Below the pieces are notes generated by a model. That model had not been told where the DNA came from, made no database searches, and saw nothing but the letters and a program-made list of their open reading frames with translations. The position numbers and the translations under genes are program-made. A DNA stretch of 59,223 nt, counting the filler. It is 8 parts of 8 records of this genome, joined end to end, with 100 filler letters (N's around TTAATTAATTAA, not from the genome) between each part and the next. Parts side by side here need not be neighbours in the genome. Positions count along the whole stretch, not along the records: positions 43,903 to 51,045 come from SRR31156797_24369; 7 more parts are not named here. One strand, written 5' to 3'. Positions 5,981 to 57,292 of the stretch are shown here, in pieces. The first letter of the stretch is position 1, and each line of letters starts with the position of its first letter.

Positions 5981-6934
5981 ATGGAAAACAAAATTTTAGT
6001 TGAAGCACATGACCTAAAAAAGTATTTTAAAATGTCGAAGGGTTCAGTTCACGCTGTTGATGGCATTAGTTTTAAGCTGCAGCAAGGAAAAACGCTGGGT
6101 GTTGTAGGAGAATCCGGTTGTGGAAAAACCACTCTTGGCAGGGTACTGCTGCATTTGTACGATGTGACAGGCGGAAAGATTATTTATAACGGTGTGGATA
6201 TTACCAAATACAGCCAAAAGCAGATGAGGAGCATCAGACGGGAAATGCAGATGATCTTTCAGGATCCCTCGGCTTCTCTTGACCCGAGAAAATCCGTAAT
6301 GGATACCATAGGTGAACCGTTAAAGATTTATAAAAGTTTCTCCACAAAGGCAGAGTATGAGGAAAAAGTTTTGGAGAACATGAGAACCGTTGGTCTTGCA
6401 GAACAGTATGCAAGCAGTTTTCCTCATGAATTGGACGGCGGCAGACGTCAGAGAATTGGTATCGGTCGTGCGCTTGCGACAAATCCAAAATTTATTGTGT
6501 GTGATGAACCTGTGTCCGCATTGGATGTGTCTATTCAGGCGCAGGTGCTTAACTTATTAATGGATCTTCAGGAGTCTAAAGGATTAACCTATATGTTTAT
6601 CACACATGACTTGAGCGTAGTCAAACATATTAGCCATGACATTTTGGTTATGTATTTAGGTCAATGTGTGGAATATAGTGAGACGCGTGATTTATTCAAG
6701 AGTCCGCTGCATCCGTATACAAAGGGTCTTTTAGACGCAGTTCCGATTCCTAGTTTGACGGGTAAAAAACTTTCTACTGAAGTTATGAAGGGGGAACTGA
6801 CCAGTCCTATTGATCCAAAACCTGGCTGCCGGTTTGCAGTACGCTGTCCTTATGCGACTAAAAAGTGCATTGGCACAGACATTGCATTGAAAGAAGTAGA
6901 ACCCGGACACTTTGTTGCCTGTACGCTATATTAA
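5981..6934 (+). CDS. Peptide ABC transporter ATP-binding protein (OppF/DppF-like)
   Basis: GESGCGKT, LDGGRRQR signature variant, DEPVSALD, HPYT, 'GCRFAVRC'. Confidence 0.94.
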   Translation: MENKILVEAHDLKKYFKMSKGSVHAVDGISFKLQQGKTLGVVGESGCGKTTLGRVLLHLYDVTGGKIIYNGVDITKYSQKQMRSIRREMQMIFQDPSASLDPRKSVMDTIGEPLKIYKSFSTKAEYEEKVLENMRTVGLAEQYASSFPHELDGGRRQRIGIGRALATNPKFIVCDEPVSALDVSIQAQVLNLLMDLQESKGLTYMFITHDLSVVKHISHDILVMYLGQCVEYSETRDLFKSPLHPYTKGLLDAVPIPSLTGKKLSTEVMKGELTSPIDPKPGCRFAVRCPYATKKCIGTDIALKEVEPGHFVACTLY

Positions 6935-7005
6935 TAGCTTATCGGTTAGCAATCATTTTATGTCCGTGAAAATTATTTAAGACAAAATATGAGGAGTATA
7001 TTATT

Positions 7006-7734
7006 ATGACAGATTTTGAACGTATTTGTAAGCGAATGGATAAAATGCAGCATACAATTGAGCGTTTACAGGCTATTGTAGATATTCAGAATGTTATGGG
7101 ACGATATGAAACCTTGCTTGTCCCTCAGACAATGGATCGTGTGGCACCTGAAACATTTGCTATGTGGATGGATGATGTTTCTATGGAGGTGGCTGATCGA
7201 GGTGTATATGTAGGATCTAAAGGTGTTCAAACCTTGTTCGCAGATTTAATGGGGCGTAGTGAGCCTGAGGAGGATGGGATACCCGATAGACGGGGCGCTA
7301 TGTATGTTCATCAAATAAATACGCCTATGATAGAGGTCGCTCAGGACTGCAAGACGGCTCATGCTGTTTGGTTTTCCTGTGGATTAGAGACCCCCTTCAA
7401 TAAGGATATGGGGAAACGGCAGGCCAAATGGTGTTGGGGCAAATACTCAGTTGAATTTATCAAGGGCGACTGTGGCTGGAGAATATGGCATATGCATTGG
7501 TTCAGGGGCTTTATGAACGACTATTATAAGAGTTGGGTTGATGATTTTACCAATGATACCCGTGACATAACCAATAAGGAGATTTACGACTTTATAAAAT
7601 CTACCACTTTCTTCCAACCGTATAACCCCAATGAAGAGATTGTTCCGGTTCCTCTCAACCCAGAGCCTTACGATACTCACGTTAACAGCGATTGGATTTA
7701 CGGGGACTGGCTGAAGAAGTCTTCTTCGGAATAA
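7006..7734 (+). CDS. SnoaL-like / NTF2-family protein
   Basis: 'DIQNVMGRY', 'HQINTPMIEVAQDCKTAHAVW', 'WGKYSVEFIK...WRIWHM' are typical SnoaL_4 patterns. Confidence 0.8.
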   Translation: MTDFERICKRMDKMQHTIERLQAIVDIQNVMGRYETLLVPQTMDRVAPETFAMWMDDVSMEVADRGVYVGSKGVQTLFADLMGRSEPEEDGIPDRRGAMYVHQINTPMIEVAQDCKTAHAVWFSCGLETPFNKDMGKRQAKWCWGKYSVEFIKGDCGWRIWHMHWFRGFMNDYYKSWVDDFTNDTRDITNKEIYDFIKSTTFFQPYNPNEEIVPVPLNPEPYDTHVNSDWIYGDWLKKSSSE

Positions 7735-10980: not shown

Positions 10981-13575
10981 ATGTTTTTATTTGAACAAAT
11001 TGAACAATCAAAAAAGTTTAATGCATATGCTCCTTTACCTGATTATATTGGTGAATGCATTAATCCGAATTTTCCATTAAGACAATATCAGATTGATGCT
11101 TTTAGAAACTTCATAACTTATTTTGAGAATGAAAATACTAGAAGATATCCTACGCAAACGCTTTTTCATATGGCGACAGGAAGCGGAAAAACTTTGATGA
11201 TGGCAGGCTTGATTATTTATCTGTTCAAACAAGGATATAGGAATTTTCTTTTCTTTGTTCACCTCGATAACATAATTCGAAAAACAAAAGATAATTTTAT
11301 AAACAGCTTATCAAGTAAGTATTTGTTTGCGGATGAAATTAGAATTGATGGTGAAGAAATACGGATAAATGAAGTAGACAATTTTGAAGGAGCAGATAGT
11401 GATTCTATTAATATCTGTTTTACTACAATTCAGGGCTTACATATTAGTTTAAATACTCCGAAAGAAAACAGCATTACAATTGAGGACTTTATTGATAAAG
11501 AAGTAGTGCTTATATCAGATGAAGCACATCATATCAATGTAGAAACAAAAAAAGGCAAACTAACAAAAGAAGAGGCTGAGGAAAAGAATAACTGGGAGTA
11601 TAGCGTAAATCGTATTTTTGGAGCTAATAAAAACAATGTAATGCTTGAGTTTACAGCAACATGCGATTTAGAAAATCCATACATAGAAGCAGAATACGAA
11701 AATAAAATTTTATTTGATTATCCACTTTCAAAATTTAGAGAAGATGGATATTCAAAAGAAGTGAAAACTTTACAATCTGATATCCCCTTGATGGACAGAG
11801 CATTGCAAGCAATAATATTAAGCCAATATAGACAAAAAGTTTTTCAAGATAATGGGCTAAATATTAAGCCGGTAGTTCTTTTTAAAGCTGCTAAAATAGA
11901 AGAAAGCAAAGACTTAATGCAAAGCTTTATTGATACAGTAAAAAGTTTAAACTCAGATACATTGTTAAGAGTAAAGAAACAAACTGATAATCCGGCTTTA
12001 ATATCTGCATTTCGTTATTTTGATAGAAGTGAAGTAACTTATGAAATATTATCGCAAGAATTAAAAGAGGAATTTTCAGAAGAAAAGTGCATATCTGTTA
12101 ATGATAAAAAAGAGGCTATAGATACTCAATTGATAGTTAATTCACTGGAAGATAAAAACAATCCTTTTAGAGCGGTGTTTCAAGTAAAAAAATTGGATGA
12201 AGGTTGGGATGTTCTTAATTTGTTTGATATTGTAAGATTATATGAAACAAGGGACGCGAAAAATGGAAAACCGGGAAAGAAGACAGTTGCGGAAGCTCAA
12301 TTAATAGGAAGAGGGGCGAGGTATTGTCCGTTTGTTATCGAAGAAGAGAAAGATAAGTTTATACGCAAATTCGATAATGATTTAGACAATCCATTGCGAA
12401 TTTGTGAGGAGCTTTATTATCATTGTCAATATGATTCAAAATATATAAGTGAGCTTACAATTGCATTGAAGGAAGTTGGAATTATAGCTGAAAATTCTAT
12501 TGAAAGAGAGTACGTTTTTAAACCTGAATTTAAGCAAGATGAATTTTATCAAAAAGGGCTTGTTTTCTATAATAATAAAAAAGTAAAAAGCAGAAATAAT
12601 ACATTTTCTTTACTAGAGAAAATTAGAGAAAAAGAGCATGAAGTTAAAATTTTTTCCGGTCGAACGATGACTGATACTATATTTGAAGATAGGCATTATG
12701 CAACAGATAGTATGACATATCACAAGAAAGTTACAATTTTTCAAATTGCAGATATGAATTATAATATAGTTCATAAAGCACTTCGGAAGTTTCCAATTTT
12801 CAAGTTTAATACTTTAAAAAGTTATTTTCCGAACTTGAAATCAATCAGAGAGTTTATAAAGTCAAAAGAATATATAGGAAATACAAAGATTGATATAGAA
12901 AGCAATTTAGAAGAGCCTAGTATGAATATATATTATGATGCTTGCGTGAAAGTTGCAGGAATAATGGCGGATTCAATATCAGATATTGAAATCACATATG
13001 AAGGAACAAAGGAATTTGCATGCGATTATTTCCATAGAATATTTAAGGATAATCAAAAAGTAAATTATACTAATCCTAGCGGTGATAAAGCAGGAATCCC
13101 ACAGTCAGATTTGACAGTATCACCAGAGCTTAGATTGGATTTATCAAAAGAGGACTGGTATGTATTTAATGATAACTATGGAACATCTGAAGAAAAAGCT
13201 TTTGTAAAATATTTTCATACTCATGTCGAAGAGCTTAAAAAGAGTTATGATAAAGTTTATCTGGTGAGGAATGAGCGCAAATTAAAGATATACTCTTTTG
13301 TGGATGGTCAAAGATTTGAACCGGATTATTTGCTATTCTTGCATAACAAGAAATCAGATGGGTATAAGCAAATGCAAATATTTATAGAACCAAAAGGTGC
13401 TCATCTAATTAAAGATGAAATTTGGAAAGAAAATCTAATGTTAGAGTTGAAAGATAACGCAATACCAGTTACGAAGTTCGTAGATGATAATGAATACAAA
13501 ATTTGGGGCTTTCCGTTCTATAATAGGCAAGAGAGAAGTAATGAGTTTTCAGAGGCTATGGATAAGATAAAATAG
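10981..13575 (+). CDS. res: Type III restriction endonuclease subunit (SF2 helicase + PD-(D/E)xK nuclease)
   Basis: 'MATGSGKT', 'ISDEAHH', 'FTAT', 'LDEGWDV', 'QLIGRGAR', C-terminal 'FEPDY...IFIEPKG'. Confidence 0.93.
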   Translation: MFLFEQIEQSKKFNAYAPLPDYIGECINPNFPLRQYQIDAFRNFITYFENENTRRYPTQTLFHMATGSGKTLMMAGLIIYLFKQGYRNFLFFVHLDNIIRKTKDNFINSLSSKYLFADEIRIDGEEIRINEVDNFEGADSDSINICFTTIQGLHISLNTPKENSITIEDFIDKEVVLISDEAHHINVETKKGKLTKEEAEEKNNWEYSVNRIFGANKNNVMLEFTATCDLENPYIEAEYENKILFDYPLSKFREDGYSKEVKTLQSDIPLMDRALQAIILSQYRQKVFQDNGLNIKPVVLFKAAKIEESKDLMQSFIDTVKSLNSDTLLRVKKQTDNPALISAFRYFDRSEVTYEILSQELKEEFSEEKCISVNDKKEAIDTQLIVNSLEDKNNPFRAVFQVKKLDEGWDVLNLFDIVRLYETRDAKNGKPGKKTVAEAQLIGRGARYCPFVIEEEKDKFIRKFDNDLDNPLRICEELYYHCQYDSKYISELTIALKEVGIIAENSIEREYVFKPEFKQDEFYQKGLVFYNNKKVKSRNNTFSLLEKIREKEHEVKIFSGRTMTDTIFEDRHYATDSMTYHKKVTIFQIADMNYNIVHKALRKFPIFKFNTLKSYFPNLKSIREFIKSKEYIGNTKIDIESNLEEPSMNIYYDACVKVAGIMADSISDIEITYEGTKEFACDYFHRIFKDNQKVNYTNPSGDKAGIPQSDLTVSPELRLDLSKEDWYVFNDNYGTSEEKAFVKYFHTHVEELKKSYDKVYLVRNERKLKIYSFVDGQRFEPDYLLFLHNKKSDGYKQMQIFIEPKGAHLIKDEIWKENLMLELKDNAIPVTKFVDDNEYKIWGFPFYNRQERSNEFSEAMDKIK

Positions 13576-13621
13576 GAAAATACAAATTTTTTTGTATCTG
13601 AAAACAGATATATAAATTTTA

Positions 13622-13778
13622 TCTATGGATTATAATAATCCGTTTTCTTAAATGTCTTAAAATAGAATATCCTTCTTTTTATGGACTGTAATAATACATT
13701 TTTTTATAGTGTACGAAAATAAAACACACACCTCTTTTTATAGACTCCAATTATCCCTTTTTAGGTGTGTAAAATTTC
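13622..13778. repeat. Three degenerate ~56-59 bp tandem repeats
   Basis: Units begin TATGGATTATAATAATCCGTTTT (13624), TATGGACTGTAATAATACATTTT (13680) and TATAGACTCCAATTATCCCTTTT (13739). Confidence 0.55.
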
Positions 13779-13886
13779 TAATAATGTCATATTGATAAAT
13801 AGTATAAAGCTTCAAATAAGCAAAAAAGCATAAGTAATTACTTACACTTTTATATTGATTAGTTAGTTGAGGTATGTTTTATTATG

Positions 13887-14189
13887 TTAGGCTTCTTGTT
13901 TATTTTCTCTGTGTAGTCTGGCGGTTTTTAGGTTTTGAGCAAGCTCTTTTTTTCTCTCTTCTGATAATACTCTTGGAGGGTTAATCTTAATCCATAGTTT
14001 TGGTACAGTACATGTTAATGCATCATCACGATAACCCTTTATAGGATAGCACTTTGAAGGGTATTTTTGGTTAATCTCTGCAAGTCTTCTTTTTAGTCTT
14101 CTATCATATGTGTAAATTTCTGCTGTTTGTTCCTCATTGTTATAGTTGATTGTGGTTTCCTGTTCGTACTTTGAATATTGCATTTGCAT
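13887..14189 (-). CDS. Conserved hypothetical protein of Firmicute mobile elements
   Basis: 100 aa, AGGAG RBS, 'EQETTINYN...AEIYTYD...VPKLWIKINPPR...SEE' pattern. Confidence 0.7.
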   Translation of the reverse strand: MQMQYSKYEQETTINYNNEEQTAEIYTYDRRLKRRLAEINQKYPSKCYPIKGYRDDALTCTVPKLWIKINPPRVLSEERKKELAQNLKTARLHRENKQEA

Positions 14190-14271
14190 ACTCCTTTTCT
14201 AGGTTCGTTTTCAGTGGTTCAGCTGCGTAATTTATTTTTTCTAGTGTTCAAGTATCGACATCATTTGTATT

Positions 14272-14381
14272 AATCTTGTCTATTTACAGACAAGTTACAC
14301 GATTTATATTCTCAATCTTGTCTATTTAGCGACAACCAGTGCAGATTGTACTTGCTTTATCTAGTCGCTAGTTAGACAGAT
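14272..14381. repeat. Iteron/hairpin cluster (candidate origin)
   Basis: AATCTTGTCTATTTA at 14272-14286 and 14314-14328; hairpin CTTGTCT-N6-AGACAAG (14275-14294); related GTCGCTAGTTAGAC. Confidence 0.55.
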
Positions 14382-14411
14382 ATACTATATATAGCCATGA
14401 GTAGCTTTTTA

Positions 14412-14753
14412 TTAATCGTATTTCCATTTAGAAGAGAAGCGATAAACATTTGGTTTCTTACGGTGCTTATTATTCTCTATCTCTTCAATAAAGCCTAATT
14501 CAATTAATTGCTTTTTAGCAGAATCAAAACCTCCAGCAGAGATAAAACCGATATATTTTGACCTAGGGAAGATAAACTCAATTTTACCAGCACTTTCTAA
14601 TTTCATATAACAGTAAACTTTAAAAGCGGATGGTTTTAGTTTTCTCATTTGGCTATGTGCCATTTGTGAAGCACCCATTTGAATGAAACGTTTTTCGACT
14701 ACATCCTCTTTACAGGATGCATAGTCTGGAAATGTGTATTTCTTCTTAGCCAT
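14412..14753 (-). CDS. Winged-helix DNA-binding protein (replication-initiator-like)
   Basis: 113 aa; 'LKPSAFKVYCYM...AKKQLIELGFIE...PNVYRFS' wHTH pattern; translationally coupled to the Xis-like gene. Confidence 0.6.
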   Translation of the reverse strand: MAKKKYTFPDYASCKEDVVEKRFIQMGASQMAHSQMRKLKPSAFKVYCYMKLESAGKIEFIFPRSKYIGFISAGGFDSAKKQLIELGFIEEIENNKHRKKPNVYRFSSKWKYD

Positions 14754-14980
14754 TATTCAGATATGGGATAGACCCCATTAATACTATTTGAAGTATTAAA
14801 CATGAGGTTTTGTTTTTCTTGATTATCCATCCATTCATCAAGCGACTTAATCCTAAATAAGTACACACCTCCAGCGAATATATGAGGAAGCTGTTTTTCC
14901 CTGCATAGTTTTCTTACTGAATATTCTGATAAGCCTAAATACTCTGCTGCTTGTTTAATTTTCACTGTTGTCAATATCAA
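14753..14980 (-). CDS. Excisionase-like HTH protein (HTH_17)
   Basis: 'IKQAAEYLGLSEYSVRKLCREKQLPH...YLFRIKSLDEWM'. Confidence 0.85.
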   Translation of the reverse strand: MILTTVKIKQAAEYLGLSEYSVRKLCREKQLPHIFAGGVYLFRIKSLDEWMDNQEKQNLMFNTSNSINGVYPISE

Positions 14981-44086: not shown

Positions 44087-45172
44087 ATGGGTGCTGAAAA
44101 AATAAGTTTGCGTCAAATCATTGATGTCATAAAGGGAACTGAAAATGAATGGGTCGAAAAGGCGCGACAAAGAACAGCCCGACTGGTCATGCCGACCCGT
44201 GCCCTCGGCAGGCTTCATGACATTGGGGAACGCTTGTGTGCCATTAATAGAACGCTCAAACCTTCAATTGATAGAAAGGCTTTTCTGGTGCTCGCCGGCG
44301 ATCATGGTGTTGTTGAGGAAGGCGTCAGCGCTTATCCCCAGGTCATTACCGGCGAAATGGTCCGCGCTTTCCTCACGGGCGGTGCAGGCATTAATATCCT
44401 GGCCGAGGGGATAAATGCGGAAGTCCAAGTGGTGGATATGGGCATCATTCCACATCTGGACCCCGATTCCCTGGAAAACGGCCACAGGCTTCTGGTTCGA
44501 AAAATGGGCGAGGGTACCGAAAACATAGCAAAAGGGCCCGCCATGACACGTAAAAAGGCGGAAGAGGCGGTGCTTACGGGGTTTAAAACGGCTTCGGATC
44601 TCCTGGAAAAGGGTGTGGCCATATTGGGGACGGGCGACATGGGCATCGGCAACACCACCCCATCCGCCGCAATCGGCGTCCTGTTGACCCAAAAGAGCGT
44701 GGAAGAAATGGTGGGCCGGGGGACCGGGGTTGACGATGAGGGTCTCATGCGGAAAAAAGATGTCATCCGCCGCGCCATTGACGTGAACCGGCCCGACCCC
44801 CGGGATGGCCTGGATGTTCTTTCCAAATTGGGGGGATTCGAAATCGGCGGCATCGCAGGATGCATTCTGGCCGGCGCCTACCATGGCCGCCCCGTGGTGA
44901 TCGACGGTTTCATTTCAACGGCAGGCGCACTCATCGCCAATGCGCTCTGTCCCGCAATCAAGGATTATCTCTTTGCGGGTCATTGTTCGGAAGAACCGGG
45001 ACACAGGCACATGCTGGATTATCTACAGCTGGACCCGATCCTGGACTTGGGAATGCGCCTCGGAGAAGGAACCGGCGGCGCATTGGCCATGGGGATAATA
45101 GAAGGTGCGGCTAAAATTGCCAGAGAGATGCTCACCTTTGAGGAAGCCGGTGTTACCGACAAGGAATCCTGA
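44087..45172 (+). CDS. cobT: Nicotinate-nucleotide:dimethylbenzimidazole phosphoribosyltransferase
   Basis: 'ALGRL', 'AGDHGV', 'GDMGIGNTT', 'GGFEIGG', 'DGFIS', 'MRLGEGTG', 'TFEEAGV'; likely start ATG 44087 after GGAGG. Confidence 0.95.
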   Translation: MGAEKISLRQIIDVIKGTENEWVEKARQRTARLVMPTRALGRLHDIGERLCAINRTLKPSIDRKAFLVLAGDHGVVEEGVSAYPQVITGEMVRAFLTGGAGINILAEGINAEVQVVDMGIIPHLDPDSLENGHRLLVRKMGEGTENIAKGPAMTRKKAEEAVLTGFKTASDLLEKGVAILGTGDMGIGNTTPSAAIGVLLTQKSVEEMVGRGTGVDDEGLMRKKDVIRRAIDVNRPDPRDGLDVLSKLGGFEIGGIAGCILAGAYHGRPVVIDGFISTAGALIANALCPAIKDYLFAGHCSEEPGHRHMLDYLQLDPILDLGMRLGEGTGGALAMGIIEGAAKIAREMLTFEEAGVTDKES

Positions 45173-45230
45173 GCCGCTTCCGGAGGTTTATGGTTCCAAC
45201 ATGAGAATTGCCGATCGTGCGGAATATTTC

Positions 45231-45273
45231 TTGACACATTCATCATATTAGCGCATAAATAGATATTGATATG
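45231..45273 (+). promoter_or_regulatory. Promoter with candidate ArsR/SmtB operator
   Basis: TTGACA at 45231, followed by imperfect palindrome CATAAATAGATATTGATATG (45254-45273). Confidence 0.5.
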
Positions 45274-45373
45274 GTTTTATTGCATCTCCTTTTTCTCATG
45301 TCGGCATTTTCGATCATGTTTTTTGGACCCCAATAAACAAAAAGCGGGAAAACAACGTAAACCGGAGGACAGC

Positions 45374-45703
45374 TTGCAAGAAGCGAAACCGACACCAAGT
45401 CTGAAAAATCAACTTGACTCAATTGCCATTCTAGTCAAGAGTCTTGCGGATGGAAACCGCCTCCGCATTCTGCTTTGCGTGATCGACGGGAAAAAATCGG
45501 TTTCTCAAATTGTGGAAGCACTTGAACTTTCGCAACCCCTTGTTTCCCACCATCTTAAAGAACTGAAGCGGACGCTCTTGCTTAAAATCGAGCGAAGAGG
45601 GCCTTTTATCTATTACGAAATCGCAGATAAGAGAATTATTGATATTCTCAACCGTTTGGATGAACTGGTTACGGACCTTTTATCAAAAAGAACTTCATTT
45701 TAA
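45374..45703 (+). CDS. ArsR/SmtB family metalloregulator (TsoR-like)
   Basis: 'KSLADGNRLRIL...SVSQIVEALELSQPLVSHHLKEL...R.GPFIYY'; TTG start 45374 with GGAGG RBS. Confidence 0.9.
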   Translation: MQEAKPTPSLKNQLDSIAILVKSLADGNRLRILLCVIDGKKSVSQIVEALELSQPLVSHHLKELKRTLLLKIERRGPFIYYEIADKRIIDILNRLDELVTDLLSKRTSF

Positions 45704-45722
45704 TTCTCGGAGATAATTCAGT

Positions 45723-46178
45723 ATGAATACTGAAAGAATTCAAAAGTTGGTCGATACCATGGAACCTGAAGAGGCCGCTTCGGCCCTTGCCGGTGTATTG
45801 AGAAAAGTGTTTCCTCTCCTGAAAGAAGAAACGCGTCTGGAACTGGTATCGAATCTGGTCGGCACATCTTCTGATGAAAAGCTGACGAGCATGGTCCATC
45901 TCTGAATGGCCACGTGCATGGACGAAGGTGTCGATCCAACGGATATGTGTCAGAGCATGGTAGAAAAAGTGGCCCGATCAAAACAACTTACGACGGTGGC
46001 TGAACCTGAAATCCTCATATTGTTTGAGGAGTGGCTGGAAGAGCTGGACAGTGAAGTTGTGGCTTTCGTAAAAAATACAGGCTCAACCGACCCCGTCGAG
46101 CTGTCCGGAGCCTGCGGCATCTCCCGATCAGGGGCGGATTTTTTAATCACAAAACTGAAAAGAGAAGGGAAACTATGA
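45723..46178 (+). CDS. tsoA: Selenoprotein with L-U-M-A-T-C motif (151 aa; TsoA-like)
   Basis: ORFs 45723-45905 and 45906-46178 are in frame and separated only by TGA (45903-45905); a SECIS-like hairpin follows. Matches the 'LULAXC motif' TsoA family as I recall it. Confidence 0.85.
45919..45938 (+). promoter_or_regulatory. Bacterial SECIS element candidate
   Basis: TGGA-CGA-[AGGTG]-TCG-A-TCCA hairpin; G-containing loop 20 nt after UGA. Confidence 0.7.
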
Positions 46179-46279
46179 AATCCGGCCTGTCCGGTTTTCC
46201 AAAAAAGGGCGTGTACAAAGGTACTTGGCCATAAAATGTTCATAAATAATTAAAGCATCTATTTCAAAAGGAGGTCATC

Positions 46280-46597
46280 ATGCTGAAAATAAGATTCTTC
46301 ATGAATGAACCCAACGGAAAACCGTGAAAGCATTTCAAATCCATGATGCCCAGGTTGGGCGAAAAATACGACATAGAGATCGAGACCATTTCCAAACCTC
46401 GTGCGGAATATAACACGGATGAATACTTCGAAATGGACCTGCCGGTGGCACCCGCCGTCATGGTAGGCGAAGAGATTCTGGTGGAGGGCTCTGATGTTTC
46501 CGATGAAACCCTCGAAGAAGCCATCTGCAAACAGCTCGGCATCACACCGCCGGATCCAAAAAAGAAGGGGATCCTCGGCCGGTTGCTGAAGAAGTAA
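46280..46597 (+). CDS. tsoC: Thioredoxin-fold selenoprotein with NEPNGKPU motif (105 aa; TsoC-like)
   Basis: AAGGAGG RBS, ATG 46280, MLKIRFFMNEPNGKP-TGA(46325)-KHFKS continues in frame into ORF 46343-46597; cis-Pro-like 'VAPAVMV'. Matches the 'NEPxGxxU' family as I recall it. Confidence 0.88.
46348..46360 (+). promoter_or_regulatory. Bacterial SECIS element candidate
   Basis: GCCCA-[GGT]-TGGGC hairpin; loop 25 nt after UGA; AGGT core as in the first candidate. Confidence 0.75.
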
Positions 46598-46633
46598 TCT
46601 TTACATGGTCACCATACTCGTTACTTAGGAGTT

Positions 46634-47146
46634 ATGATGGTTATTATTGAAAAATTTTTAGGGAGGCGCTTGGCGTTACCCGAAGATCTTCGCTATTATG
46701 TCAAGCAGGGTCTTTGGGCCAAGCAGGACGAAGACTTTGTCACATTCGGCTTGAGTGAACCGGCCTTAATCCTGGCCGGTGGTCTCAAAGATTTGGACTG
46801 GCTTGTGGCAGAAGGTCAAACCGTTCAGCAGGGAGAGACCGTTATCTTTGCCATTACCGGGAAAATCCTCTACATCGATTCACCCATGGGTGGAGATATC
46901 CATTTCAATGACGGGATAAAACATGCTCCCGCGCTCGTGTTGGATGATCCCTATCACCGGGGATGGCTGTTTAAACTAAAATCCGGGGAAAAAATGGAAA
47001 AGTCTTTTCATGGGCTGGCCGATGCGTCCACATACGCCGAAAGCCTTAAAAGTTCGGAAGGATGCAAAAACCCGGAGGGTTTAAAGGGGGGTGTCTCGGG
47101 AATGTGCAAAGCCGTGTATTCCGGTATAGGAGCGCAGAAAATCTAG
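46634..47146 (+). CDS. Glycine cleavage H-protein-like carrier with Cys-containing C-terminal extension
   Basis: 'LPEDLRYY...LWAK...FGLS', 'SPMGG', 'DDPYHRGWLFKL' are GcvH-fold motifs; tail 'GCKNP...GMCKAVY'. Confidence 0.8.
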   Translation: MMVIIEKFLGRRLALPEDLRYYVKQGLWAKQDEDFVTFGLSEPALILAGGLKDLDWLVAEGQTVQQGETVIFAITGKILYIDSPMGGDIHFNDGIKHAPALVLDDPYHRGWLFKLKSGEKMEKSFHGLADASTYAESLKSSEGCKNPEGLKGGVSGMCKAVYSGIGAQKI

Positions 47147-47220
47147 CGGTTTTACCACCGACAACGGCTCAACCGAAAATCAATCCGTATTGATCAGGGC
47201 GCGGCAACGGGTTTGCCCAT

Positions 47221-48240
47221 CTATTGATCGGTTGAGCGGTCCCTGAATCGTGTGGGGTCGACGTTCATGCGCGAATCCCTTAAAAACTGAGGCGCCAGTG
47301 ATTCCGAAATATCGGGGATGTTCGATAATTCATGATGTTTCATCAGGAACTTGGCCGTACATTGCAGGCTGGAAAGGATCGCCTCGTCAAGGCATAACCG
47401 GTATTCATGGCGCTTCATGGCCTTTTGGGTCACCGGCACGGAAAGGCCGGTGTTCCGGCTCAATATTTCAGCGGTTTCATCGGGGTGGGTGTGCACAAAA
47501 TCCTCTGCGTACCGCAGGGCCCGAAAAAACCGAACCAGATCCCCTTTTCTCTCTTCCATGATGGATGCGTTGGCCAACATCACAATAGGGTAGCGATTTC
47601 CGAGTCCGCCGAACGTAACCAGTTCTCTTCCCCCCCGGGCTTCGGCCAAAGATGGCGTGGGTTCGCTGGCGGCCACGGCATCCACCGAACCGGCCATGAG
47701 CGCTTCAGGCATTGTACCGGGATTCAGATCAACAACCGTTACGGCATTTTGACCGATGCCGTTTGCCGACAAAAAGGTCAGGAACCCGCCATGGGTGGAG
47801 GTGCCCTTCTTCATTGCAATCCGTTTTCCAACAAGATCCTTGAAACTGCCTATGGATCCATGGTGTCGAACAATAAGGCGGTGGCGATGTTCTCCACTGC
47901 CGTGGCTGGCGACAAGTTTCAATTTTGAATGCCGAAAAAGCGCCAAAACAGCCGTACTGTCGCCCATGGTCCCCACATCCGCAGAGCCGGAATAGAGGGC
48001 TTCCGCACAGGCCGGACCACTGCTGAACCTGAGGGGACGCACCTTGATCCCCGCTTTCCGGAAGTATCCCTTTTCCACGGCTACCATGGGAATGGCACTT
48101 CCGATGCGATTCTGAAAAGCAAACCGCAAAGGACTTTTTCCTCCACCCTCATCCCATTTAACGCAGGAAACACATAAACCCATTACCCCGAACAGCCCGA
48201 AACAAAAAAATATTTTTTCCAATATATTGAATTTTGCCAT
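47221..48240 (-). CDS. NitT/TauT/SsuA-type ABC substrate-binding protein
   Basis: 'VAVEKGYF', 'FSSGPAC.EAL.SGSADV', 'DLVGKRIA..KGTSTH', 'GSVDA..ASEP'. Confidence 0.9.
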   Translation of the reverse strand: MAKFNILEKIFFCFGLFGVMGLCVSCVKWDEGGGKSPLRFAFQNRIGSAIPMVAVEKGYFRKAGIKVRPLRFSSGPACAEALYSGSADVGTMGDSTAVLALFRHSKLKLVASHGSGEHRHRLIVRHHGSIGSFKDLVGKRIAMKKGTSTHGGFLTFLSANGIGQNAVTVVDLNPGTMPEALMAGSVDAVAASEPTPSLAEARGGRELVTFGGLGNRYPIVMLANASIMEERKGDLVRFFRALRYAEDFVHTHPDETAEILSRNTGLSVPVTQKAMKRHEYRLCLDEAILSSLQCTAKFLMKHHELSNIPDISESLAPQFLRDSRMNVDPTRFRDRSTDQ

Positions 48241-48257
48241 AACCGATTTTTCAATGC

Positions 48258-49016
48258 TTAAACACTTCGGGGAAGTGAATCCAGCACGGCACGCAATGCT
48301 GAAATGATATCTCGCATTTCCCCGGATGACCGTATCCGGGGCCGCGTGGATTCCACTAACATATCACAGCGGATGTTTTTACGGGAAGGTCCCATGACGA
48401 TCACACGGTCGGCAAGGTACGCCGCCTCTTCCACACTGTGGGTAATATAGATCAGCGTTCGCCGGCGATGCTGCCAGATTTTGAGCAGTTCATCCTGGAG
48501 ATGCTCCCGGGCATTGGCGTCTAGATTGCTGAAAGGTTCATCCATGAGGAGCACCTTCGGTTCGAGCGCCAGGACTCGGGAAATGGCGGTCCGCTGACGC
48601 ATCCCTCCCGAAAGGGTGTGTGGATAAGCATCCGCGTGTGATGCCATCCCCACCAGGTCGAGATATTTCCGGGCGGTCTCGGCCATGGAGCCGTAGTTTA
48701 CGCCTCTTAAACGCAAAGCGAATTCCACATTTTTCCGCACCGTTAACCATGGGAAGAGGTTTGCATCCTGGAAAACAACACCCCGTTCCGGCCCGGGACC
48801 ATCAACGGGCGATTCGTCAAAGAAGACTTTGCCTTGTGAGGGCGTGATAAAACCGGCGACAAGATTCAACAGGGTCGTTTTGCCGCAACCGCTGGGGCCC
48901 AGGATACAGGCAAACTGTCGATCGGGGATGGTGAGACTGAGATTACAAAGAACCGGTACCGACCGTTTCCCCTCATTCCGATACCATTTGGAAACATTTT
49001 CCAGCCGAATCATCAT
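48258..49016 (-). CDS. NitT/TauT ABC ATP-binding protein
   Basis: GPSGCGKT, 'VFQDANLFPW', LSGGMRQR, DEPFSNLD, 'THSVEEA'. Confidence 0.93.
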   Translation of the reverse strand: MMIRLENVSKWYRNEGKRSVPVLCNLSLTIPDRQFACILGPSGCGKTTLLNLVAGFITPSQGKVFFDESPVDGPGPERGVVFQDANLFPWLTVRKNVEFALRLRGVNYGSMAETARKYLDLVGMASHADAYPHTLSGGMRQRTAISRVLALEPKVLLMDEPFSNLDANAREHLQDELLKIWQHRRRTLIYITHSVEEAAYLADRVIVMGPSRKNIRCDMLVESTRPRIRSSGEMRDIISALRAVLDSLPRSV

Positions 49017-49798
49017 TCCTGACGCTGAAGCGACCACCGTTCAACAGTGCGCTTCTCCAAGGGATTGAAAACCAGATGTTCCATCAGCAACCCCATGATG
49101 CAGATTACACATAGACAGGCGAAGGCGGCGGCGTAATCAAGGGTCCAGCGCGCCTGGATAATGGAGTAGCCGAGCCCCGTGCCGGCGCCCACGATCATTT
49201 CCGCCGCAACCAGAACCCGCCATCCGTTGCCGAGGCCGATCCTGAGACCACTGATGATGGACGGCATGGCGCCCGGCAGCAACACCTTAAACAGCATGGT
49301 CATCCGTCCCGCCCCCATCATCTGCGCCGCACGCACGAAGGTGGTGTCCAACCGTTTTACACCGTTTAAAACATTGATGGCCACGGGCGGAAAGGCGGTC
49401 ATGGCGATCATGAAAACCGTTGCGGTTTCGCCGATGCCGAAAATCAGGATGGCAACGGGGATCCAAGCCAACCCCGGAATCAACTGGAGAATATGTACGA
49501 TGGGAAAGGTTGCGGATTCAAGGGAGCGCGACCAACCCGAAAGCAGCCCGTAAATCACACCGGCAACGGCCGCCATGATGAATCCGGCCAGCCAACGGAC
49601 GGTACTGTCCGCAAAATGCCGATACAGGGTATGGTCGGAAAGGTTCTGCCCCCCCAGCAACGCGGTGAGTTTCATAATGGTGCTCCAAGGGGTCGGGAAC
49701 GGTACACCTCTCATGGCTGAAACCGTAAAAGCGACCAGCTGCCATACCACCAAAAAGATAATGATGGGAGTAAAACTCCGTATCATAAATCTGATCAT
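49013..49798 (-). CDS. NitT/TauT ABC permease
   Basis: 'IPGLAWIP', 'AAQMMGA', 'GLRIGLGNGWRVLVAAEM...GLG'. Confidence 0.93.
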   Translation of the reverse strand: MIRFMIRSFTPIIIFLVVWQLVAFTVSAMRGVPFPTPWSTIMKLTALLGGQNLSDHTLYRHFADSTVRWLAGFIMAAVAGVIYGLLSGWSRSLESATFPIVHILQLIPGLAWIPVAILIFGIGETATVFMIAMTAFPPVAINVLNGVKRLDTTFVRAAQMMGAGRMTMLFKVLLPGAMPSIISGLRIGLGNGWRVLVAAEMIVGAGTGLGYSIIQARWTLDYAAAFACLCVICIMGLLMEHLVFNPLEKRTVERWSLQRQE

Positions 49799-49850
49799 AT
49801 TAATGTCCGCCTGCGGGTTGCAACCAGAAATTCAAAGAATAGTGCTGGGA

Positions 49851-50255
49851 TCAGTGCGCTTCAATGATGCCGGGAAGAATGGCTTCAGGGAAACTCTGCC
49901 GCACCTGATTAAAAAACTTATCAATAAGGGACATCTGCCGGCTGAGGGTTCCAACCCATCGCCATAAGCATTCCTTACCGGCTTCCGTCAAATAATATTT
50001 CCGTTTGGGCCTCCCTTTTTCAGGTGTGTCCCATTCGGAGATGAGCATACCCCTTTTTTCCAAAAGATTCAGATGTCGGTAAAGACCGGTAATATTCATA
50101 CCCACATCCATCTCTTCCATGTATAAACCGATCCGCTTCTTGATCTCATAACCGTGCGTGCCACCGTGATTGAAAAGCGTAAGCAAAATCCAAGGAGCCG
50201 CCAGATTACTCATGCTTTTTCCGGAACACGGGCATTTTTCGATGCTTTGGGCCAT
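49851..50255 (-). CDS. PadR family regulator with N-terminal CPC motif
   Basis: 'HGYEI', 'LYRHL..LEKRG', 'RPKRKYYLTEAG'; N-terminus 'KCPCSG'. Confidence 0.9.
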   Translation of the reverse strand: MAQSIEKCPCSGKSMSNLAAPWILLTLFNHGGTHGYEIKKRIGLYMEEMDVGMNITGLYRHLNLLEKRGMLISEWDTPEKGRPKRKYYLTEAGKECLWRWVGTLSRQMSLIDKFFNQVRQSFPEAILPGIIEAH

Positions 50256-50269
50256 TCGATTCTATCCTC

Positions 50270-50291
50270 CAATGTAACATATCCTACATTG
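50270..50291. promoter_or_regulatory. Palindromic operator abutting the PadR RBS
   Basis: CAATGTA-N8-TACATTG; fits ATGT-Nx-ACAT-type PadR-family sites. Confidence 0.65.
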
Positions 50292-50382
50292 TATAATATA
50301 ACCGCAAAAAAAACAACATTCAAAGGAAATCAACCCGGCATCACCAAAAATTTTGTCAAATCCGTGAAGTTTCGGGTTAACA

Positions 50383-51045
50383 TCATGATGACGCTTCCGA
50401 ATAAGGCTGAAATACCCCCAGGCTTGACCAGGAGCCGGTTTCGGAGGCCTTCTCAATTCCTGCCATGGATTCCGGAGGCCCAATGAAAACCACAACATTT
50501 CGGTGCTGAATCCGATGGCGGGGAATATCCGTTTTTTCGATGGTCCAGTCGCCCATGACATAGTTGAAAATATGCATGCCGCTCCCGTCTTCCACAAACC
50601 CTTTGGCCCGAACCACTGAAGGAGGGAGTGCATCCGCAATTTCCTTTACTTCACGGATGTCTTTCCCATTCCATTGATATCCCACCGACATGAGCATATC
50701 CGGAGGCGTAATTTCAAGGTCCGGGCTGTCGAGCAAATCATCAAGGAACCGATCCAGTTCCGTATCCGACAACTTCGGTGTATGGGAAGATGGATCCGTC
50801 AGAGAGTCAGCCGGGGATGCTCCTCCCTCATCCAGTTCCAGAAAACGTTCCAGCGGAATATCCGCATAGGTGGTTTCGAAAAAAAGGGGGTCGGGATGAA
50901 ACCGGGCGATAATCTTTTTGGTTTCTTCAATCTTTTCGTGCGGCGCCGTATCCGTTTTGTTGATAATGAACACACTGGAGGAAGCGATCTGTTTCTCCAG
51001 GGACGCATAAACCTCATAAGCATCTACGAAATGAGCGGCATCCAC
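50383..51045 (-). CDS. CobW/COG0523 GTPase, C-terminal part (5' truncated)
   Basis: 'VDA...QI...IINKTD' G4 motif and CobW_C 'VVRAKGFV...VVFIG'; the TGA stop is followed by TGT TAA. Confidence 0.85.
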   Translation of the reverse strand: MDAAHFVDAYEVYASLEKQIASSSVFIINKTDTAPHEKIEETKKIIARFHPDPLFFETTYADIPLERFLELDEGGASPADSLTDPSSHTPKLSDTELDRFLDDLLDSPDLEITPPDMLMSVGYQWNGKDIREVKEIADALPPSVVRAKGFVEDGSGMHIFNYVMGDWTIEKTDIPRHRIQHRNVVVFIGPPESMAGIEKASETGSWSSLGVFQPYSEASS

Positions 51046-56408: not shown

Positions 56409-56822
56409 CTACAAAATCTCAGACTTCCTAAACTTCAGAGCCAACCCGGCAAATACCAGCAGGACTACATCGCGAGCAATCGTCATCTGCATATCAGAAG
56501 CAGTGGAAGCATCCGTGGAGAAACATCCGCAGGCCACGTCTATGCCGCGATAAAGGTTAGCCGAGAGCGCGGCGATGAAAACAAGCAGCATAGTCACCAG
56601 AATCGCCACCGCAGCATCTATAAACACACCACAGACCAGCATGGCTCCGCAAACAAATTCCAGCCACGGCAAGAAGAAAGCCACGGGGCCGACCATCATT
56701 TCCGGCAAGATCTGATAATTCTTGATTATCTCAGCGAAAGCCAGCGGGTCAACAATCTTATCCAGACTGGCGACAATAAAAACAATCCCGAGAAGAATAC
56801 GGGGTAATGATCTAAATTCCAT
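56409..56822 (-). CDS. MauE/DoxX family membrane protein
   Basis: 'RILLGIVFIVASLDKI..P..F', 'LPWLE', 'RGIDVACGCF', 'RD'. Confidence 0.9.
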   Translation of the reverse strand: MEFRSLPRILLGIVFIVASLDKIVDPLAFAEIIKNYQILPEMMVGPVAFFLPWLEFVCGAMLVCGVFIDAAVAILVTMLLVFIAALSANLYRGIDVACGCFSTDASTASDMQMTIARDVVLLVFAGLALKFRKSEIL

Positions 56823-57292
56823 TAGTTTGCCTCCAAATCCATTCCGGCTCCGATCCAGCCGTCTATGCCTTCAGTATACACTGCCACATCCCTGAATCCC
56901 TGCGCCACCAGCTTCTTGGCTACGATAAGGCTTTTACCGCAAGAAAGACCGTCACAATAAATTATCACCGGAAGATTTCGATCAATCTTGGCTGCCTGCA
57001 TCGCCAGTTCATCCCCTTCCATATAAACGGTAATATTCAGCGCACCGGGAATATGGCCCATGGCGAATTCCATGTCGCTACGGGCGTCCACGAAAAAATA
57101 TTTCCCGGCAGTATAGTCCTGCAACAGATCAGCAGTGCCGATCTCCCCTATCTCGGGCGGCTGCGGATGGCTAAGCTCCGCAAAGGTATATGGTTTGAGG
57201 CGGGCAGCATTAAAAGCCACTGCCAGACCGCCGGAAAGGGCACATATCAAGATTACTTTAACCAAAAACCCGGTTACTTTACCAAACTTCAT
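56822..57292 (-). CDS. Membrane-anchored rhodanese-domain protein
   Basis: 'FVDARS..EF..GHIPGA.NI', active loop 'YCDGLSCGKS', 'EGIDGW'. Confidence 0.9.
   Translation of the reverse strand: MKFGKVTGFLVKVILICALSGGLAVAFNAARLKPYTFAELSHPQPPEIGEIGTADLLQDYTAGKYFFVDARSDMEFAMGHIPGALNITVYMEGDELAMQAAKIDRNLPVIIYCDGLSCGKSLIVAKKLVAQGFRDVAVYTEGIDGWIGAGMDLEAN

Follow-up and report, generated by a model that had tools for sequence, protein, structure and literature searches.

The genes considered here lie on one contig (positions 43903-51045) of a 59-kb window, by which we mean the whole stretch of DNA that was analyzed (1-59223; a chain of at least 8 contigs joined by paired runs of N), and comprise cobT, a selenoprotein operon and an importer cluster, each of which has described relatives. 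For the selenoprotein operon the closest of these is the Tso system, which is covered by a set of curated NCBIfam models (NF045707, NF045695, NF045694, NF045708 and NF045810). A 2026 review (PMC13188914) lists TsoA, TsoB, TsoC, TsoX and TsoY, attributes Tso, the 'three selenoprotein operon', to Haft & Tolstoy (2025, mSystems 10:e0141724), and describes SaoA/SaoP/SaoX as the ATP-binding cassette (ABC) transporter of the SAO selenoprotein system. The importer cluster recalls (i) the SsuABC/TauABC and SaoA/SaoP/SaoX transporters, with which it shares a three-gene architecture and fold family, (ii) the PadR autorepressors, (iii) the COG0523 GTPases (CobW, ZigA, YjiA), with which it shares the cobW and CobW_C Pfam domains, and (iv) through its relatives, the corrinoid methyltransferase systems (MtaA/MtbA, RACo/RamA). 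Classical PadR operators are ATGT-N8-ACAT dyads, and CxCC is the metal motif of the COG0523 family. In vitro methylation of several metalloids has been reported for MtaA-type enzymes from methanogens.

The initial annotation of this contig had assembled all of its genes into a single uncharacterized pathway, one that would import a small and possibly methylated or organometallic substrate and process it with proteins dependent on corrinoids and selenocysteine (Sec). By listing open reading frames (ORFs), translating TGA as Sec and scoring the products against Pfam and NCBIfam, we found every gene that it had named (Table 1). These form two convergent sets, running from cobT to the GcvH-related gene on the plus strand and from cobW to the binding-protein gene on the minus strand, with a gap of 74 bp between them (47146-47221). 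In our reading, to which we assign a probability of about 70%, the contig carries three independently working units whose juxtaposition is specific to one narrow lineage.

Distribution of the three units across genomes

We compared 43 Tso loci from about 41 genomes, 7 of them taken from a reference-genome scan and 36 from a phylum sample of 401 genomes, with up to 10 kb on each side (labels of the form L### denote the compared Tso loci, importer loci and metagenome contigs from other genomes). When 10 window proteins were searched against these loci by tblastn, TsoC was found in 29 and CobT in a single one (L005, 2.4 kb upstream of tsoR), CobW, PadR, the binding protein and the permease were found in none of the 43, and matches to the ABC ATPase were generic, at 27-48% identity. 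As CobW and PadR make short or divergent queries, local profiles were built from the importer neighborhoods and run over ORFs of at least 80 residues lying within 8 kb of tsoA. The initial annotation had proposed CobW, PadR, TauABC, corrinoid proteins, UroD-like methyltransferases and ASKHA activators as the partners to look for around the selenoprotein genes; across the 43 loci the profiles returned PadR once, and no CobW, UroD-like protein, RACo, B12-binding protein, binding protein or permease. The genes that do recur beside Tso are those for TsoB, a DedA/VTT membrane protein (19/43), a sigma-54 response regulator, a class I methyltransferase and TsoY. DedA/VTT is the only non-generic family that recurs in both the Tso and the importer neighborhoods, and copies from one set share no more than 41% identity with those from the other.

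The importer was followed in the other direction. A first single-protein scan of the reference genomes for relatives of the binding protein gave one match of 25% identity, and an alignment-based scan gave 80 importer loci, again taken with flanks of up to 10 kb. Their sources include Desulfobacterota, Geobacter relatives, Sulfurospirillum, Methanosarcinaceae and Bathyarchaeia. TsoA, TsoC, the GcvH-related protein and CobT were absent from all 80. At the level of whole genomes, TsoA occurs in 7 of the 50 importer-bearing genomes that were searched for it (the 30 loci left out being mostly not Desulfobacterota), never inside the importer locus itself, as against 29/401 in the phylum sample, so that there is no clear enrichment of TsoA among importer genomes (Fisher p 0.10).

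Outside the window, the Tso-importer neighborhood was seen only in L139 and L140. An assembly chimera was considered as the cause of the juxtaposition and rejected, given that the same neighbors stand in both of these contigs. Co-occurrence of the two operons and cobT in other genomes, on which the initial annotation had staked its reading, was found for Tso and the importer in two close relatives, neither of which has a cobT match. With no co-location in the 43 Tso and 80 importer loci, the case for a single pathway rests on adjacency in one narrow lineage, and the proposal that cobT, the Sec operon and the importer belong to one pathway did not hold up.

The position of cobT is the simplest to describe. 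Its product is a CobT equivalog, the TIGR03160 model covering residues 20-356. DNA similarity between the window and L139 (blastn) begins at 45229, past the cobT stop codon, which places cobT outside the common block; the 195 bp that L139 retains beyond the end of similarity have no match to cobT, so that the gene is not beside tsoR there, and no cobT match was found anywhere in L140. We conclude that cobT is an ordinary cobamide lower-ligand-activating enzyme and a bystander to the other two units. An Rfam scan of the contig gave no match at E<=0.1, hence no cobalamin riboswitch was detected.

Table 1. Features of the contig, in window coordinates, with the evidence for each.
Feature	Position	Strand	Evidence
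cobT, nicotinate-nucleotide:dimethylbenzimidazole phosphoribosyltransferase	44087-45172	+	TIGR03160, E 1.7e-129, 431.8 bits (cut-off 319.3); PF02277
tsoR, ArsR/SmtB-type regulator	45374-45703	+	NF045707, 155.5 bits (cut-off 115)
tsoA, selenoprotein, 151 residues	45723-46178	+	NF045695, 219.8 bits (cut-off 170)
SECIS-like (selenocysteine insertion sequence-like) hairpin	45919-45938	+	Consensus fold of 40 TsoA genes, 60 nt from UGA onward
Spacer where tsoB lies in most relatives (78 bp)	46186-46263		blastn against L139
tsoC, thioredoxin-fold selenoprotein, 105 residues	46280-46597	+	NF045708, 154.7 bits (cut-off 45)
GcvH-related protein gene	46634-47146	+	NF045810, 259.2 bits (cut-off 150)
NitT/TauT-type substrate-binding protein	47221-48240	-	PF09084, PF13379
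ABC transporter ATPase	48258-49037	-	PF00005
ABC transporter permease	49013-49798	-	PF00528
PadR-family regulator	49851-50255	-	PF03551, 46.8 bits (cut-off 27)
Inverted repeat, likely PadR operator	50257-50304		Repeat search; core CAATGTA-N8-TACATTG
COG0523 (CobW-type) GTPase, C-terminal 220 residues, cut by contig end	50383-51045	-	PF07683, 24.2 bits; PF02492, 23.1 bits

The Tso operon and the tsoB position

Four products of the operon, namely TsoR, TsoA (with its Sec in L-U-x-A-x-C), TsoC (NEPxGxxU) and the GcvH-related protein, exceed their NCBIfam cut-offs, and the operon that had been presented as part of an uncharacterized pathway therefore already has a name: it is Tso, with curated models and a place in the review cited above (PMC13188914). 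The ArsR-type and GcvH-like genes had been correctly recognized. The one selenoprotein of the initial annotation is in fact two, since both tsoA and tsoC contain an in-frame TGA, at 45903-45905 in tsoA (Sec61, in the motif L-U-M-A-T-C, accompanied by Cys65 and Cys76) and at 46325-46327 in tsoC (Sec16, in the motif NEPNGKPU). Translation of tsoR starts at a TTG (45374) preceded by GGAGGA, and only 19 bp separate tsoR from tsoA, the two being adjacent in all 43 Tso loci compared.

The GcvH-related gene follows tsoC here, whereas within the Tso operons of L020-L023 it precedes tsoC; it also lies beside tsoC in L024 and L025. It was found in 8 of the 401 phylum-sample genomes, in 7 of them above the cut-off, and is a genuine but minority Tso partner. 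In an alignment with E. coli GcvH, its Lys76 falls on the lysine of the 'ESVKA' motif, the site of lipoyl attachment.

Sec decoding of TsoA is well supported. At E<=1e-10 TsoA was found in 39 of the 401 genomes (29 above the cut-off), and 40 of the 44 matches have exactly one in-frame TGA, the other 4 being C-terminal pieces; U61, C65 and C76 are invariant in the 40 aligned sequences. The SECIS-like hairpin begins 13 nt past the last base of the tsoA UGA, and its pair at columns 20/33 is A-U in 24 sequences, G-C in 16 and broken in none of the 40. Single-sequence folds 3' of both UGA codons were no better than those of shuffles (z 0.47 for tsoA, -0.34 for tsoC), and the tsoA hairpin is evident solely in the 40-sequence alignment. 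A tRNA scan of the window found none, so that no tRNA-Sec was seen.

The two selenoproteins differ in how well they can be modeled. For TsoC the AlphaFold2 model is a confident thioredoxin fold (predicted local distance difference test, pLDDT, 88.8; predicted template-modeling score, pTM, 0.77) whose best PDB matches are thioredoxins (E 5.9e-4, TM-score 0.58), and in this model Sec16 stands at the start of the first helix (residues 14-29). TsoA was modeled as a helical protein, with middling confidence (pLDDT 76.5, pTM 0.39); a fold search with it gave no match at E<=0.001, its last ~45 residues being weakly winged-helix-like (E>0.4). We also observed a second TsoC-like gene directly upstream of tsoC in four loci (L001:13395-13712, L002:3135-3446, L004:2831-3148 and L037:12000-12278), the products of which have a Cys at position 12 (NEPCGKP-C/U), and with it a putative C-x3-(C/U) pair that the main TsoC does not have.

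TsoB is a membrane protein resembling a rhodanese/DsbD fusion, with two Sec residues. In most relatives tsoA and tsoC stand some 1.8 kb apart, and pieces of TsoB cluster in 27/43 loci; on this contig the gap is 101 bp, too small for tsoB. In the blastn comparison with L139, a segment of 1808 bp (12968-14775) encoding the rhodanese, DsbD_TM and thioredoxin parts of TsoB corresponds to the 78-bp spacer of the window. Searched against the whole 59-kb window, the L139 TsoB pieces gave one weak match of 30 residues (57035-57124, E 4e-4), which falls in a rhodanese gene on another contig. The same arrangement, with tsoA directly beside tsoC, exists in 4 of the 43 loci (L003, L006, L007 and L052). 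By its gene content the operon is a TsoB-less natural variant of Tso, in which tsoB was probably lost at this locus. Its description puts such a variant on record, and guards against mistaking an operon that already has a name for a component of a new pathway.

The importer cluster and the island upstream of cobW

The ABC importer falls outside each of the named transporter families against which it was scored. Its binding protein reaches 154.3 against the SsuA family model TIGR01728, just below the cut-off of 163.5, and 48.8 against TauA (TIGR01729; cut-off 304), and is thus assigned to neither. The best NCBIfam match of the ATPase is SaoA, at 236.1 bits against a cut-off of 360, and the permease scores 151 bits with TauC and 148.2 bits with SaoP, both below their cut-offs (295 for SaoP); with SaoX at 41.3 against 300, the SAO transporter models (NF040729, NF040733 and NF040735) do not claim it either. 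Of 4028 candidates, 425 are related to the binding protein at E<=1e-20, with identities of 74-77% for the closest. A profile search of the 401-genome phylum sample at E<=1e-60, of little informative value with no positive control and only 5 candidates scored per genome, gave 0 matches. The Cys that the initial annotation had picked out in 'SSGPAC' (Cys78) proved invariant in 36/36 aligned binding proteins. It adjoins the conserved G-P loop, and the nearest solved structure, that of E. coli SsuA (2x26), has a Met at this position.

Both features that had been noted for the PadR protein, its N-terminal Cys-Pro-Cys and its palindrome, are likewise real. The motif is at residues 8-10, and Cys8-Pro9-Cys10 together with Cys96 are invariant in 13/13 aligned orthologs; to our knowledge neither the Cys-Pro-Cys nor Cys96 is a feature of characterized PadR, LmrR or PhaQ. 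As in the PadR autorepressors, a PadR domain is combined with an inverted repeat over the gene's own promoter and ribosome-binding site: the repeat is immediately upstream of padR and spans the ribosome-binding site and a promoter-like -10 hexamer (promoter-like site at 50323-50295). Its core also contains ATGT and ACAT half-sites, although these are 10 nt apart here. The repeat is kept in 8 orthologous upstream regions, and in L059 and L078 both arms have changed symmetrically (CATGGTA...TACCATG), which argues for a real operator; we regard it as the likely operator of PadR.

The truncated CobW of the window shares 80-83% identity with its full-length counterparts in L139 and L140. In L139 the full-length protein (6058-7092) scores 80.7 against the CobW equivalog TIGR02475, far from the cut-off of 332.1, and reads C-V-C-V where the CxCC of the COG0523 family is expected; the COG0523 assignment holds at the Pfam level only. 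The same L139 protein weakly matches the NCBIfam 'CobW-related selenoprotein' model (59.9 bits, cut-off 180).

L139 and L140 came from a metagenome scan, and their proteins are 75-89% identical to those of the window, with DNA identity of ~80%. One strand of L139 carries, in order, a corrinoid protein (cut at the contig end), RACo, DUF6951, DUF2284, an MtaA/UroD-like methyltransferase, an unassigned ORF, a small MTH895/ArsE-family thioredoxin, CobW, a thioredoxin-reductase-like gene, a padR remnant, the permease, the ATPase and the binding protein; past ~1.06 kb, the other strand carries the GcvH-related gene, tsoC, tsoB, tsoA and tsoR. L140 has the same importer end, then a block of 6.8 kb (a PMT-family glycosyltransferase, an AAA_14/DUF4143 ATPase, a family-9 glycosyltransferase and an unknown gene), and then the GcvH-related gene and tsoC. 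The spacer between Tso and importer therefore measures 74 bp in the window, ~1.06 kb in L139 and 6.8 kb in L140. Gene losses differ among the three, with tsoB and the reductase-like gene missing from the window and most of padR from L139 and L140. In the latter two the reductase-like gene lies between cobW and the ABC genes, and padR is a C-terminal remnant (L139:8103-8198, in which the last ~32 residues match, and L140:2700-2810); the window has an intact padR and no such reductase-like gene.

The closest reference genomes, L078 and L059 (61-72% protein identity), repeat this order as RACo, DUF6951 (L078 only), DUF2284, UroD-like protein, thioredoxin, CobW, reductase-like protein (L059), PadR and the ABC genes, the corrinoid protein upstream in L139 not being part of their series. 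The RACo proteins of the relatives have the domains PF14574, PF17651 and Fer2, and the L139 corrinoid protein is TIGR02370-like. Catalytic genes of the kinds foreseen beyond the contig end do stand upstream of cobW in L139, L078 and L059. No catalytic gene of this island was found on any contig of the 59-kb window, and as the contig ends within cobW, we infer the upstream part here from synteny. On that basis, cobW-padR-ABC appears to be the tail of a corrinoid methyltransferase island.

With RACo and an MtaA/CmuA-family protein upstream of cobW, the relatives resemble described corrinoid methyltransferase systems. They differ from these in that the methyltransferase scores only 122.9 against the MtaA/CmuA cut-off of 235.4, in that no substrate-specific MT1 methyltransferase was recognized, and in the additional partners, namely DUF6951, DUF2284, the MTH895/ArsE thioredoxin, COG0523, the thioredoxin-reductase-like protein, the three-Cys PadR and the NitT/TauT importer. 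A search of the available literature gave nothing relevant on DUF5714, on DUF6951, or on DUF2284 with corrinoid.

Across the 80 importer loci the ATPase was matched by tblastn in 79, the permease in 76, PadR in 14 and CobW in 6. The local profiles found CobW in 11, UroD-like proteins in 10, RACo in 9 and B12-binding proteins in 6, along with relatives of a radical S-adenosylmethionine (SAM)/ArsM-like/DUF5714 fusion in 22/80, a small thioredoxin in 7/80 and an aquaglyceroporin-type MIP in 5/80; these profile counts are minimum values, since some genes escaped the crude picking of ORFs (the permease, for example, was recovered in only 47). Taking the lists of neighbor clusters together, methyltransferase systems are present in roughly a third of the loci. 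Neither SsuD/SsuE nor a TauD-type oxygenase is among the annotated recurrent neighbor clusters.

Several individual architectures deserve mention. A fusion of 1002 residues, composed of radical SAM, ArsM-like methyltransferase and DUF5714/MbdU-like parts, is encoded directly upstream of the binding-protein gene in L135 (6945-9950) and in 11 other importer loci, mainly in Sulfurospirillum and other Campylobacterales, where it is accompanied by rhodanese, DedA/VTT and CCG/Fe-S genes; its ArsM-like part scores 212 bits with PRK11873 (cut-off 263). In two Geopsychrobacteraceae genomes a ThiC-family radical SAM gene (L114:3120-4511, L115:3121-4446) stands directly upstream of UroD-like, CobW, MIP and ABC genes, with further UroD-like, B12-binding and DUF1638 genes nearby. 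In some loci, such as L064 (5988-7352), the UroD-like methyltransferase ends in a domain resembling the 'HUIPC motif thioredoxin-like (seleno)protein' model (45.5 bits, below the cut-off of 105); in place of this fused domain, L139 and L078 have a separate, unassigned ORF of 134-145 residues after the methyltransferase gene.

Explanations for the adjacency

Several observations weigh against three independent units. The juxtaposition of Tso and importer recurs in two independent metagenome contigs, L139 and L140, and may have been kept for a reason, their DNA being only ~80% identical, so that some time has elapsed without the units separating. The units also share a Cys/Sec theme, visible in the ArsR-type metalloregulator and the thioredoxin-like proteins; DedA/VTT proteins lie near Tso in 19/43 and near the importer in 7/80 loci, and ArsM-like methyltransferases lie near 22/80 importer loci. 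In addition, the Tso loci were scanned to 8-10 kb only, and ORFs of fewer than 80 residues were ignored.

Such observations are the basis of a looser association, which we consider improbable, in which a soft metal(loid)/chalcogen island keeps separate operons and their regulators together for the same stress, e.g. selenium, arsenic or reactive sulfur. The persistence of the adjacency at ~80% DNA identity speaks for it, as do the DedA/VTT proteins common to both types of neighborhood, the ArsR/SmtB-type metalloregulator TsoR beside a PadR with three invariant Cys, and the recurrence of ArsM-like and DUF2284/MbdU-like proteins near the importer. However, the shared families are generic, co-occurrence by genome is weak (the 7/50 versus 29/401 given above, p 0.10), and tsoB, the reductase-like gene and padR have each been lost somewhere among the three relatives, a pattern that resembles drift and not a maintained unit.

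A more specific and rather improbable proposal concerns the importer family as a whole. Together with CobW, the three-Cys PadR, small thioredoxins, DUF2284 and either the corrinoid/RACo/MtaA-like set or the radical-SAM/ArsM-like/DUF5714 fusions, it could constitute an undescribed system for the uptake and (de)methylation of a thiol-reactive small molecule (a metalloid, organo-chalcogen or organo-arsenic compound), the same species being handled in this lineage by Tso.

That a methylated or organometallic compound is taken in and processed by cobT, Tso, CobW, PadR and the importer as one corrinoid- and Sec-dependent pathway is, we think, very unlikely. The Tso and importer islands converge as neighbors both in the window and in L139 and are no more than 6.8 kb apart in L140, the relatives do have corrinoid methyltransferase genes upstream of cobW, and many importer loci hold ArsM-like, MIP or MTH895/ArsE-type genes that hint at metalloid chemistry. 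On the other hand, neither the 43 Tso loci nor the 80 importer loci show any co-location, L139 has no cobT beside tsoR and just 1/43 Tso loci has one nearby, unrelated cell-envelope genes separate the units in L140, and the genomes of L059 and L078, which hold the closest reference importers and are incomplete, are without TsoA.

Nor is it at all probable that the importer is an ordinary SsuABC/TauABC system for aliphatic sulfonates or taurine merely placed beside unrelated genes: its nearest solved relatives are SsuA and TauA and its TIGR01728 score comes close to the cut-off, but it does not reach the cut-off for any of the named transporter families in NCBIfam (SsuA, TauA, SaoX/A/P), its Cys78 is invariant where SsuA has Met, and unlike those systems it has methyltransferase systems and not sulfonate oxygenases as its annotated neighbors.

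We return to three independently working units. From the gene identities, synteny and conservation counts that we observed, we infer the substrate, signals and biochemical steps as follows. TsoR would release the Tso operon upon a metal(loid) or reactive sulfur/selenium signal. The invariant Sec-x3-Cys...Cys of TsoA and the active-position Sec of TsoC, a single residue at the tip of the first helix, suggest that these proteins, with the GcvH-like carrier, may bind and pass on a thiol-reactive species in the cytoplasm. In the full Tso system TsoB would pass reducing power across the membrane, and the copy on this contig could then be a cytoplasmic remnant. The importer, through a binding protein with an invariant Cys near the ligand loop, would bring in a small substrate for corrinoid-dependent methyl transfer, which its neighbor genes make it a reasonable guess to seek among methylated or metalloid/chalcogen compounds. 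The three-Cys PadR would repress its own operon at the palindrome until a substrate, redox or metal cue is received, and the COG0523 GTPase may serve a metal or cofactor step. The importer family is widespread but unstudied, with sulfate reducers and methanogens among its carriers and an invariant-Cys binding protein encoded repeatedly beside methyltransferase systems, and the ligand of this protein might reveal a route of metalloid or sulfur/selenium methylation or demethylation in anaerobes.

The remaining observations concern the window at large. The guanine-plus-cytosine fraction of the contig is ~0.50, and across the window it ranges from 0.26 to 0.42 in the contigs to the left (of 43900) and from 0.46 to 0.53 to the right; given this spread, the contigs may not all derive from one organism. 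On the next contig, the rhodanese gene in which the TsoB match falls is followed by a gene for a MauE/DoxX membrane protein (56409-57292, minus strand), and the same contig holds nifE/N-like, nifB-like and NifA-like genes.

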